A stretch of 22,264 nucleotides of DNA from Trueperaceae bacterium (GTDB taxonomy: Bacteria > Deinococcota > Deinococci > Deinococcales > Trueperaceae): positions 23,801 to 46,064 of the forward strand of contig JBBDRK010000057.1 of assembly GCA_040905465.1 (NCBI GenBank), given 5' to 3'. Below are positions 20,139 through 22,264 of the stretch, in pieces. A program made the translations under genes and the position numbers. The first letter of the stretch is position 1. Each line of letters begins with the position of its first letter. The notes below the pieces were generated by a model. The model was not told where the DNA came from, searched no databases, and was given only the letters and a program-made list of their open reading frames with translations.

Positions 20139-20258
20139 GGGGTCAGACCGGAAGGAAATCGCAACGGGGTGGTCGATTGCGATGACTCGCAGATGCTCCT
20201 GCCATGAAGTCGATCACCACGCTGCCATCTGGAATATTCCGTGTCTAGGAAATCTGAG

Positions 20259-20264
20259 TATAAT
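20259..20264 (+). promoter_or_regulatory. Putative -10 box for the metallopeptidase-rsmB genes
   Basis: Perfect TATAAT in a relatively AT-rich intergenic patch about 70 nt before the start; -35 is poor. Confidence 0.5.
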
Positions 20265-20335
20265 GCTGTCAAGTTGGGGCAGACGAAGAGAGCCGCCCCC
20301 CCCGCCCGGACTCTCCATAGGAGGAGCGAGAGACA

Positions 20336-21007
20336 GTGTTGATGTACTACCTGATCGGAATCGTCGCATTCGCCGCGTCCATGTTGGTGCAGTGGTGGCT
20401 TCGCAACACCTACCGCATCTGGATGGCGCGCCCCAATGCCTCTGGGCTCACGGGGCGCGACGCCGCCTTGGCGATCCTCGACGCCAACGGCGTTACCGAC
20501 GTGAAAGTCGAGATGGTGAAGGGAACTCTCACCGACCACTACGATCCCACCAGCAAGACCGTCCGGCTTTCGGAGGGCAACTTCGGCCGGGCAAGCGTGG
20601 CGGGCATGGCCGTGGCCGCTCACGAAGTCGGCCATGCGCTTCAGCACAATCTCGGGTATACCCCGCTGCAATGGCGTACCTCTTTGCTTCCGGTGGCCAG
20701 CATCGGTAGCCAGTGGGGTCCGATCCTGGCGATGATCGGCCTGTTCCTGACCGGTGGTCCCAATATCCTGCTGACCATAGGCATCTGGCTTTTCGCCGGA
20801 GCGGTGCTGTTCCACCTGGTAACCCTTCCTATCGAGTTCGACGCCAGCCGAAGGGCACTCAGTCAGCTCGACCGGCTCGGCATCGTCACCAGCCAGGATG
20901 CCGGCGGGGCTCGAGCCGTCCTCACCGCCGCGGCGATGACCTACGTAGCAGCGGCCGCGACCGCCATTACCTACCTGATCTACTTCATCATGGCCAGCCG
21001 GAGGTAG
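20336..21007 (+). CDS. Putative neutral zinc metallopeptidase, YugP family (membrane)
   Basis: GTLTDHYDP, AVAAHEVGHALQ (HExxH), LVTLPIEFDASRRA and VLTAAAMTYVAA motifs; AGGAGG upstream. Start could be 20336, 20339 or 20342. Confidence 0.9.
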   Translation: MLMYYLIGIVAFAASMLVQWWLRNTYRIWMARPNASGLTGRDAALAILDANGVTDVKVEMVKGTLTDHYDPTSKTVRLSEGNFGRASVAGMAVAAHEVGHALQHNLGYTPLQWRTSLLPVASIGSQWGPILAMIGLFLTGGPNILLTIGIWLFAGAVLFHLVTLPIEFDASRRALSQLDRLGIVTSQDAGGARAVLTAAAMTYVAAAATAITYLIYFIMASRR

Positions 21008-21011
21008 CCGC

Positions 21012-22264
21012 ATCTCAGGGCCGCGAACCCTTGCAGTAGACGTCTTGCGCCGCGTTCATCGCGGCGCTTTTGCTGCGCCCTCGCTCTCGAGCGCCATGGA
21101 CGGACTGGCGGAGGCCCGCGACCGGGGCCTGCTAACCGATCTCGTCTACGGGACCCTGCGTAATCAGTTGCTCCTGGACGCCTGCCTCGCCGGGCGTCTT
21201 CCGGCGCCGCAGCGCTTGCCGGAAGACGCCCGCAACGCATTGCGACTGGCAACCTACGAGCTGCTCATCCGGGGCACGCCGCCACACGCTGCGGTCGACG
21301 AGTGGGTCGAGGTGGTAAAGGCGTCGGCCCCACGGCTGGCCGGGCTCGCAAACGCGGTACTTCGGCGCGTCGAGGTTCCCGCGAACCTGCCGTGGGACGT
21401 GCTGCACTCGCTACCGGCGTGGCTCGCCGAGAGGCTGCGGGCGCTGCTCGGGGACGCCGCGGTCGAAGCCGCCGCGGGCATGCTGACGGCGGAGCCGCTG
21501 TGGTTGTCGAGCTTCGGCGAAGACGCGGCAAGGGTGCTGGTCGAAGACGGCTGCGAGGTCAGTGACGGACCTGTCACCGGCAGCCTGGCAGTACGAATTC
21601 CCCGGCCGCTGGCCACCTTGAACGCGTTTCGCAACGGCCTGGTGCAGCCGCAGAACCCGGCCTCACGGCTTTCGGCCACCCTTCTCGCCCCTGCCGCCGG
21701 TGAGCGGGTGCTGGACCTGGCGTCCGGCAACGGGATCAAGAGCGCTCAGTTGGCGTACATGGGGGCGCGCGTGACGGCGGTGGAGATCGACCGGCGCAAG
21801 GTCGAGCGGGCGGAGTCCAACCTTGCCAGGCTCGGCCTGGGCGTGGAGCATCTGGTAGCCGACCTGCGCCGTAAGCCCGATCTGCCGCCCGCGCTCAAGG
21901 TAATTCTCGACGCACCATGCAGCGGGACCGGAACGCTGCGCGGCAACCCCGAGATCAAGTTGCGCCTGCGGGAGCACGACATCGCAGAGCTGACCACCCT
22001 GCAGGCCGCGATGCTGGACACGGCGGCGGCGCTCACCTCGCCCGGTGGCACCCTGGTGTATTCGGTGTGCGCCCTGACCGCGGATGAAGGACCGGTACAG
22101 GTGGAGCGCTTTCTTGCGCGGCACGACGAATTCGAGCCGCTGTCAGTGGAACTTCCGCTGGAGCCACCGGCCGAGGGCAGTTCGAATCGACAGGTCAGCC
22201 TGAGCGCCGGTCCCGGCCGGGTGGTCCTGCCCATCTCCGGTCTCGATGGCTTCTTCATCGCGCG
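21012..22264 (+). CDS. rsmB: RsmB/Sun family rRNA m5C methyltransferase with N-terminal NusB-like domain; 3' end truncated by the window
   Basis: Not in the ORF track because there is no stop in the window. DRGLLTDLVYGTLR, LANAVLRR, QPQNPAS, VLDLASGNGIK, LDAPCSGTG, LVYSVC and DGFFIA motifs. Start proposed at ATC 21012. Confidence 0.9.
   Translation, partial: MSGPRTLAVDVLRRVHRGAFAAPSLSSAMDGLAEARDRGLLTDLVYGTLRNQLLLDACLAGRLPAPQRLPEDARNALRLATYELLIRGTPPHAAVDEWVEVVKASAPRLAGLANAVLRRVEVPANLPWDVLHSLPAWLAERLRALLGDAAVEAAAGMLTAEPLWLSSFGEDAARVLVEDGCEVSDGPVTGSLAVRIPRPLATLNAFRNGLVQPQNPASRLSATLLAPAAGERVLDLASGNGIKSAQLAYMGARVTAVEIDRRKVERAESNLARLGLGVEHLVADLRRKPDLPPALKVILDAPCSGTGTLRGNPEIKLRLREHDIAELTTLQAAMLDTAAALTSPGGTLVYSVCALTADEGPVQVERFLARHDEFEPLSVELPLEPPAEGSSNRQVSLSAGPGRVVLPISGLDGFFIA

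Follow-up and report, generated by a model that had tools for sequence, protein, structure and literature searches.

A probable AUC start for an rsmB-like gene at a conserved stop-start junction behind yugP in the Trueperaceae

The infC gene of Escherichia coli starts with AUU and is autoregulated by initiation factor 3 (IF3), as cited in PMC2830850 and PMC3643588. Ribosome-mediated attenuation of transcription is known from systems of the pyrBI type, with BmrCD of Bacillus subtilis reported as a further case (PMC4191407). For the Deinococcus-Thermus phylum, Baudet et al. (2010) proved or proposed non-AUG starts in dnaA (ATC), rpsL (CTG), Deide_03051 (CTG) and infC (ATA) (PMC2830850). Termination-reinitiation between neighbouring genes is efficient at distances of -4 and -1 nucleotides (nt), drops sharply by +14 to +20 nt and has all but vanished at +38 (PMC10666635), and ribosome termination structures, described by Chemla et al. 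(2020) after stop codons, are depleted where the gap to the next gene is <25 nt (PMC7518266). Here we describe a junction that shares features with each of these systems, in which an rsmB-like gene would begin with the codon ATC, 4 nt past the stop codon of a yugP-like gene, in a 22,264-nt stretch of DNA (the window) from a Trueperaceae bacterium, contig JBBDRK010000057.1. No description of such a start, for rsmB or in Truepera, was found in searches of the open-access literature and bioRxiv.

All features lie on the forward (+) strand and are numbered within the window. The yugP-like gene (20336..21007), for a Zn-dependent membrane metallopeptidase, has its 5' end from a mechanical list of open reading frames (ORFs) and finishes ...ASRR-TAG, the TAG at 21005..21007 being read from both the sequence and that list. 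The rsmB-like gene (21012..22264) encodes a NusB-like N-terminal domain followed by an RsmB/NOP C5-cytosine methyltransferase domain and continues past the window end. Its frame is closed upstream by TGA at 20976-20978, and its first 29 nt overlap with the 3' end of yugP. The proposed initiation codon, ATC at 21012..21014, is the lone near-cognate in the open frame upstream of TTG 21045..21047, which is the first canonical start and the choice of gene callers and is read here as an internal Leu codon, residue 12. The first in-frame ATG, at 21096..21098 (residue 29), is likewise read as internal; it serves as the start in some public calls of close relatives. TGA 20976, ATC 21012, TTG 21045 and ATG 21096 share one frame, and neither the 11 codons from TGA to ATC nor the 10 from ATC to TTG include a single ATG, GTG, TTG, CTG, ATT, ATC or ATA. 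That nothing canonical lies between TGA 20976 and TTG 21045 supports a start at ATC. A Shine-Dalgarno-like (SD-like) GGAGG (21000..21004) is formed by the last two Arg codons of the yugP-like gene (CGG AGG) and stands 7 nt ahead of ATC, and the T at 21005, first base of the TAG, completes GGAGGT (21000-21005). This anatomy, with the closing TGA, the first TTG and ATG and the GGAGGT overlapping TAG 5' of an in-frame ATC, had been set out in an initial annotation made from the DNA letters, and all of it is confirmed in the sequence. The same annotation had proposed ATC as the start of rsmB, and the positional, structural and comparative evidence given below makes it likely that ATC 21012 is that start. 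The N-terminus predicted from it is (M)SGPRTLAVDVLR.

The source genome is a metagenome-assembled draft of 81 contigs, 95% complete, and a sequencing error hiding an ATG had been considered from the outset. A Logan contig of sequencing run X1 (425 nt, depth 30, covering 20710-21134) confirms ATC and differs from the window at 21072, 21080 and 21104 only. X1 is probably the source sample, which makes the contig an independent assembly of the same data rather than independent data.

The downstream gene is filed as RsmB-like by its architecture, and its specificity for C967 is putative. The NCBIfam RsmB equivalogs match it at E values of 1.9e-59 to 4.3e-55 with scores under their curated cut-offs (201.6 bits against 319 for NF011494, and 187.6 against 269.05 for TIGR00563), the query being cut at its C-terminal end by the window edge. 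PF01029 and PF01189 are found on the genome's own gene call, P0122, with a partial match of TIGR01951 (nusB) at residues 46-131, and E. coli RsmB (1sqf) is matched at E 2.2e-40 over residues 25-386. D300, A301, P302, C303 and G305, together with C353, are invariant in 19/19 family sequences; the cysteine of this DAPCSG motif and the later one we take to be the two catalytic cysteines of RsmB.

The similarity to RsmB extends upstream of the TTG. The RsmB profiles start aligning, at their positions 5 and 1, with residues 15-16 of P0001, the translation from one stop to the next, or residues 4-5 when ATC is taken as the first, and the Arg at residue 5 (CGA, 21024..21026) is invariant in all 19 aligned family sequences. 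In an AlphaFold model built on the alignment of these 19 sequences, with a mean predicted local distance difference test (pLDDT) score of 87, and of 91 over the first ten residues, helix 1 comprises residues 3-16 from ATC. Thus the first helix of the NusB-like domain begins before TTG, as had been thought from the sequence. According to this model, a start at TTG would cost 9 of the 14 residues of helix 1, including in addition the loss of the invariant Arg, and a start at ATG 21096 would cost helix 1 and most of helix 2. Query residue 25 aligns with chain residue 28 of 1sqf, an offset of 3 residues, so that a protein begun at ATC would match the crystallised enzyme in N-terminal length to within those 3 residues. 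At Leu7, also 5' of TTG 21045, this genome has CTT where its congener G001 has TTG, a synonymous two-base change as expected of translated sequence. Together, alignment, model and substitution pattern indicate that the region 5' of TTG is protein-coding.

The signals around the two codons also differ. From 3131 ORFs called with a codon model we obtained 2974 same-strand pairs, 873 of which start canonically at the junction. Of these 873 starts, 82 (9.4%) have a full GGAGG that ends 4-11 nt before them, as do 279 of 17773 internal in-frame ATC codons (1.6%), a likelihood ratio of roughly six-fold in favour of real starts. The 16S ribosomal RNA (rRNA), which would carry the anti-SD, was not found in the assembly. 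Folding of 20960-21080 gave no sign of sequestration of SD or start (z -0.71), GGAGG and ATC being without structure. Ahead of TTG 21045 there is no SD-like run, and the G of this codon is the first base of the stem of a hairpin (-17.8 kcal/mol) described below.

Non-canonical starts are predicted elsewhere in this genome. In infC (L128, G000:C56 near 4844) position 1 of the profile falls on ATA, preceded by GGAGGTGGAG, and in rpsL (L129, G000:C15 near 3263) it falls on CTG, preceded by AAGGAG. An ATC start of dnaA was sought and rejected, the gene (L126, G000:C49 near 291843) having a canonical GTG. The same-strand pairs were also screened for junction starts of the rsmB kind. There were 389 pairs in which the downstream frame is open at the upstream stop and the first canonical codon lies >20 nt off; the 60 with the highest coding score in the gap were tested against NCBIfam, and 27 of these had a family match. 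CTG stands near the upstream stop in 10 of the 27, and in 5 of those the N-terminus of the profile falls at the junction; among the 12 with neither CTG nor ATH (ATA, ATC or ATT; AUH in RNA) near the stop it does so in 0. The five CTG cases are recR (L131), a GNAT/RimI-like gene (L136), mnhE (L139), acs (L142) and pxpB (L152), three of them with CTGA overlaps and the others at +9 and +10 nt, and the codon lies 13-62 codons before the first ATG, GTG or TTG, the 62 belonging to recR. This suggests that coupled CTG starts are not rare in this genome and that gene callers would shorten such genes. The rsmB gene itself ranked under the top 60, and similarly short extensions would escape detection by this screen.

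Comparison of relatives proved informative about the history of the start codon. A search with the single protein gave no match, and the search with alignment A1 returned mostly distant Proteobacteria and Gemmatimonadota, with Deinococcus and Thermaceae as best named matches (43-48% identity). The family, taken to be Trueperaceae from the names of the closest public homologues, is represented by 128 genomes, 117 of them with a match to the RsmB N-terminus. We analysed 115, leaving out G111 (unpublished) and G129 (N-terminus cut by a contig edge), and used the invariant Arg as the anchor of each locus, from which the stop of a yugP homologue was located upstream. Where yugP lies directly upstream (syntenic, n=72), the start slot holds a canonical codon in 31 genomes, ATH alone or with CTG in 31, CTG only in 9 and none of these in 1 (G002). 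Where yugP is not upstream (non-syntenic, n=43), 42 genomes have a canonical codon and the remaining 1 is without a canonical start. A non-canonical slot codon is thus found in 41/72 syntenic against 1/43 non-syntenic genomes. The ATH codons (ATC 12, ATT 11, ATA 8) are spread over 15 genera, and their distance to the upstream stop is -5 to +13 nt in 30 of the 31 genomes, TAATC, TAATT and ATAA overlaps included. The CTG-only genomes follow the same rule, with 8/9 within this range and 8/9 forming CTGA overlaps. Even in genus g7, 3/4 of whose genomes have an N-terminus extended by 16-24 codons, ATY (ATC or ATT) still overlaps TAA.

The frames of the relatives leave little room for other codons. 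In 13 ATH genomes the frame is closed by a stop <=12 codons ahead of the Arg, with no near-cognate other than ATH between the two; in 16 of the 42 non-canonical genomes the next canonical codon comes only 19-81 codons past the Arg. Some canonical codons occupy the very same slot, 4 codons before the Arg (ATG in G006, in G016 as TGATG, and in G122; GTG in G061 and G062), and in the 31 syntenic relatives that have a canonical start it stands at or near the slot, so the non-AUG state is not universal. The initial annotation had asked whether the SD-ATC arrangement is kept among orthologues, or whether all of these have ATG. The codon class recurs in 31/72 syntenic genomes; the strong SD is not general.

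For the 72 syntenic loci a quick tree was made from YugP C-terminal and RsmB residues, with the slot and hairpin columns excluded. ATH is found in most of a 32-tip clade (Shimodaira-Hasegawa-like approximate likelihood ratio test support 95) and in two further clades, and the tree needs 12 changes among the ATH, CTG and canonical states and 33 among the seven codons (ATG, GTG, TTG, CTG, ATC, ATT and ATA). These changes suggest that the weak codon is old, that its third base has been freely exchanged and that conversion to ATG has been only occasional. An argument from codon usage, that ATA in the slot is unlike ordinary Ile codons, was dropped as the usage is similar: the Ile codons within rsmB of ATH-class genomes are ATC 49%, ATT 32% and ATA 19%, as compared with 12, 11 and 8 of the 31 slot codons. 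On this comparison of genomes, the predicted weak start at the yugP-rsmB junction is a lineage trait of the family and not an accident of one genome.

The second conserved element of the junction lies inside rsmB. A perfect, all-GC hairpin of 8 base pairs (bp) at 21047..21067 (GCGCCGCG, loop TTCAT, CGCGGCGC) occupies codons 12-19, coding for (L)RRVHRGAF, and starts 35 nt past the start of rsmB and about 40 nt past the yugP stop. It is followed by the U-rich tail TTTTGCTG (21068..21075), whose codons GCT, TTT and GCT are rare in this genome (GCT 9.3% of Ala, TTT 10.8% of Phe). The free energy quoted above corresponds to z -3.15, and the hairpin is the sole terminator-like match within 20200-21500. 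Genome-wide, such a stem with >=5 T has 11 matches (about 9 sites), this one included, with 0 in ORF bodies. No Rfam family came near its gathering score over 20800-21300 (best E 0.31). At least 7/8 pairs are formed in register in 53/72 syntenic and 0/43 non-syntenic genomes, and an 8-nt tail with >=4 T accompanies 48/53 hairpin-bearing against 6/62 hairpin-less sequences. In the X1 contig the variant at 21072 is G>T, by which an Ala codon (GCT) becomes one for Ser (TCT) and the T run behind the hairpin grows from 4 to 5, yielding TTTTTCT, as found in several other genera; the variants at 21080 and 21104 are synonymous.

The arms of the hairpin have changed together. In G006, G125, G141 and G122 a compensatory U-A pair has arisen from a synonymous CGC>CGT in the 5' arm and an Arg>His replacement, CGC>CAC, in the 3' arm; these pairs span four genera, and the U.G intermediate is present in three g7 genomes. 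Other A-U or U-A replacements occur in G013, G137 and three g9 genomes. In an alignment of 72 rows, selected by gene order rather than by the hairpin, 84.7% of the cells are paired against 28-69% with the partner columns slid, both sides differ in 14 cells, where shuffles give 3.4 (0/500), and the covariation score is 0.104 against 0.066, reached by 0/500 shuffles, values that are to be read in the knowledge that this is a coding region in related sequences. The hairpin goes with the junction of yugP and rsmB and not with the weak codon in particular, and we regard it as a new cis-element, terminator-like by prediction, whose function we infer.

We propose that rsmB is translated from AUC 21012, which would be decoded by initiator transfer RNA (tRNA). 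The initiating ribosomes would have just terminated at the yugP UAG (21005-21007) or would be recruited by the embedded GGAGG, and the restart 4 nt past UAG would in this genome be aided by that GGAGG. The hairpin may be understood in two ways, which are not mutually exclusive. It could be the intrinsic terminator of yugP, placed inside rsmB and suppressed only by a restarted ribosome trailing the polymerase, which would amount to ribosome-mediated attenuation with the 5' end of rsmB itself as the leader. Or it could be a barrier of the ribosome-termination-structure kind, holding post-termination ribosomes within the 40 nt that contain AUC. In either case the expression of rsmB would depend on restart at the junction. 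Judged by ribosome footprint sizes, the hairpin is outside the footprint of a ribosome initiating at AUC and directly on TTG. The weak codon would keep RsmB output low and tie it to the translation of yugP; low output is to be expected as AUC gives about 5-8% of the expression from AUG in E. coli reporters (PMC3643588).

Termination-reinitiation coupling at a weak AUC start, with the hairpin depending on restart, is the reading that we favour, with a probability of roughly 0.7, because the weak codon depends on gene order and on the distance to the upstream stop. The distances of the ATH codons, -5 to +13 nt with +4 in this genome, match the published limits of reinitiation and so fit coupling. 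The pair considered here, co-directional and separated by 4 nt, also falls within the range of about -8 to +10 nt by which coupled genes are recognised.

Several observations weigh against this reading. The yield of AUC in the reporters just cited is small, and that of ATT is about 0.3%, as cited in PMC10666635. In the junction screen, the 5 pairs with a family match and ATH near the upstream stop include 0 with the N-terminus of the profile at the junction; as far as this limited screen shows, ATH starts in this genome would be confined to rsmB and infC. Within the same genus, G001 does not share ATC and has TTG 21 nt past the stop, and G002 has no near-cognate and its first TTG 2 codons past the Arg. 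The N-terminus of RsmB is accordingly labile, and G002 may be able to do without the Arg. Most ATH relatives match the SD at 3 of 5 positions or fewer. The hairpin accompanies canonical starts too (22/53) and is thus not specific to weak codons, and in this genome its U run is short, 4 U. At the position equivalent to TTG 21045 relatives encode L, M or V, 30/115 of them using CTG there, and it holds ATG, GTG or TTG in 20/42 non-canonical genomes (TTG in 11) against 11/31 and 11/42 in the other groups; this enrichment is ambiguous, being clustered by lineage, and a back-up start there is possible. Finally, kin are not independent, and all genome counts overstate the number of events.

The junction of G002 (L005) deserves mention in its own right. 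It keeps CGGAGGTAG and a coding-like ...ARR, with no ATG, GTG, TTG, CTG or ATH until the TTG past the Arg, and rsmB may start there at ACG or have a shortened N-terminus.

The rival that survives best keeps the AUC start and replaces coupling by ordinary, SD-led de novo initiation of the 30S subunit, the proximity of the stop being a matter of compact operon packing. The full GGAGG at ideal spacing in this genome speaks for it, and gaps around +10 nt with an SD are treated as likely independent initiation (PMC10666635). It would leave unexplained why most ATH relatives lack a good SD, with 2-3 of 5 positions matched at best, and yet keep the codon within -5 to +13 nt of the stop, in 1-nt and 4-nt overlaps among others, and why non-canonical codons are nearly confined to the syntenic arrangement. 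We consider de novo initiation unlikely as the general explanation, and reinitiation coupled to yugP would account better for both facts.

It is more doubtful that TTG 21045 is the true or main start, with the conserved residues 5' of it a relic or untranslated. TTG is the first canonical codon, the genome's own call begins there, a canonical-type codon occupies this position in nearly half of the non-canonical relatives, and G002 appears to need the TTG 2 codons past the Arg. Against this, the codon is without an SD-like run and has its G in an 8-bp GC stem, a start there would drop most of helix 1 and the invariant Arg, and the synonymous change at Leu7 is a sign of translation further upstream. 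In the relatives, moreover, the equivalent codon is not ATG, GTG or TTG in 22/42 non-canonical genomes (CTG in 13), and in 16 of these 42 no canonical codon follows until >=19 codons beyond the Arg. The coupled AUC start fits these data better than a start at TTG.

The initial annotation had gone further and suggested that an AUC start would make RsmB synthesis sense the stringency of start-codon selection, with 5-methylcytosine at position 967 (m5C967) feeding back on it much as IF3 does on infC. More broadly, immature 30S subunits might initiate better at AUH and so raise RsmB. The premise is sound, the methyl group added by RsmB lying beside the initiator tRNA (PMC3643588). An AUH codon kept through at least 15 genera, with its third base free and few conversions to ATG, would fit selection for a weak, IF3-sensitive codon, and infC of the same genome apparently starts at ATA. 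Furthermore, E. coli 30S subunits defective in assembly through deletion of rbfA or ksgA wrongly initiate at near-cognate and non-cognate codons (PMC6868393), a finding repeated for rsmA in a 2026 preprint, and RsmB has been reported to chaperone 30S assembly (PMC13674486). The feedback loop itself is unsupported: in the one direct test that we found, with chloramphenicol acetyltransferase (CAT) reporters of E. coli, deletion of rsmB, alone or with rsmD, made little change to expression from AUC, AUU, AUA, CUG or ACG, and only the deletion of rsmD raised AUA, about two-fold (PMC3643588). Within the family the canonical starts of 31/72 syntenic and 42/43 non-syntenic genomes indicate that RsmB function does not require the weak codon, which occurs only beside the upstream stop, where coupling accounts for it without feedback. 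We therefore hold feedback to be improbable.

A combined version, which we consider speculative and doubtful, would combine the terminator-like hairpin with the AUH start and the 4-nt gap into a sensor of initiation stringency or 30S maturation. The hairpin would be opened, and rsmB made, only if post-termination ribosomes, or poorly discriminating ones (IF3-poor or immature), restart at AUH. If true, the sensor would raise an enzyme of 30S maturation as stringency or maturation falls, giving a homeostatic loop analogous to that of infC but built from coupling and attenuation and acting through the first 20 codons of rsmB itself.

An artefact or another mode of decoding (an ATG hidden by sequencing error, a pseudogene, or a YugP-RsmB fusion made by frameshift or readthrough) might be suspected from a draft metagenome assembly and the 29-nt overlap of the frames, and is very improbable given the depth of the contig that reads ATC, an intact ORF with a confidently modelled fold and the recurrence of the codon class in 31 genomes; the fusion was rejected as the upstream stop is in the rsmB frame in some relatives and out of it in others, a varying relation that no single recoding event fits.

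The preferred reading has consequences for annotation. The genome's own rsmB call, P0122, starts at TTG (MRRVH...), and close relatives are called from an internal ATG (MDGLAE..., MEARER...), such as P0123, which is 83% identical and begins MDGLAE. The NCBI call P0166, from a Trueperaceae genome matching G018, begins MLALSV, that is, at an ATC one position past the Arg that is read as Met; an automatic pipeline has therefore already used ATC for rsmB, though not at the slot. The public calls (P0122, P0123, P0190, P0224, P0196 and P0166) are inconsistent and mostly truncated at the N-terminus, and in those of this lineage the RNA-binding domain would be short by as many as about 35 residues. 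The junction screen suggests that CTG starts next to an upstream stop are likewise overlooked by gene finders, recR being an example. At the other end of the gene, the rsmB ORF in the contig has 457 residues, of which 418-450 (L003:2785-2904, past the window end) have pLDDT <50 and are without counterpart in relatives (about 410-420 residues long), the call P0122 ending ...GFFIAR; this segment may be a C-terminal extension or the result of a lost stop. As for the upstream gene, homologues 91% identical to its product all carry PF04298 and go by the names zinc metallopeptidase [Trueperaceae bacterium] or YugP, and the ORF 20336..21007 itself had no match among NCBIfam profiles.

What sets this junction apart is an enzyme of ribosome biogenesis with a predicted weak AUH start through at least 15 genera, found only where it abuts the stop of one upstream gene and accompanied by a conserved intragenic hairpin. 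It offers a compact natural system for studying how far reinitiating ribosomes tolerate near-cognate codons. It also bears on whether weak codons serve to fix dosage or to sense IF3 and the maturation of 30S subunits, and on whether a terminator within the first 60 nt of a gene could make its transcription dependent on reinitiation.

Among the described systems, the non-AUG starts of Baudet et al. (PMC2830850) are close in kind. They belong to the same phylum and include the same codon class (ATC), and they too were argued from conserved N-terminal residues 5' of any canonical codon and from conservation of the start codon in relatives; the Deinococcus dnaA precedent that had been invoked for rsmB is real. 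The infC ATA and rpsL CTG of the present genome match those reported for Deinococcus or Thermus, whereas its dnaA, with GTG, is unlike that of Deinococcus. The predicted rsmB start differs from these cases in lying 4 nt past an upstream stop and in varying among seven codons across genera; the paper makes no mention of rsmB (0 occurrences).

E. coli infC resembles rsmB as a gene of the translation apparatus with an AUH start whose output is expected to go up when discrimination drops. The product of infC is the discriminator itself, whereas deletion of rsmB in E. coli had little effect on AUH initiation, and AUH is not universal in the Trueperaceae. The hairpin recalls both attenuators and ribosome termination structures, being stable, here with a U run, about 40 nt past a stop and crossed by a translated ORF. 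Unlike in attenuators, it is crossed by the regulated gene itself and not by a leader peptide, and unlike the structures of Chemla et al. (PMC7518266) it coexists with a gap of 4 nt.

The pair itself can be compared with coupled genes. We know of no complex in which YugP and RsmB are partners. As in the couplings studied by Huber et al. in 2019 and 2023 (PMC6728339, PMC10666635), the two genes lie on the same strand, with the start close to the stop and overlaps of the ATGA or TAATG type, which here take the forms ATAA, CTGA, TAATC and TAATT. Those studies concern canonical starts, with ATT appearing only as a possible, rare explanation of -5 overlaps (PMC10666635), whereas at the yugP-rsmB junction near-cognate codons are, across the family, as common as canonical ones.

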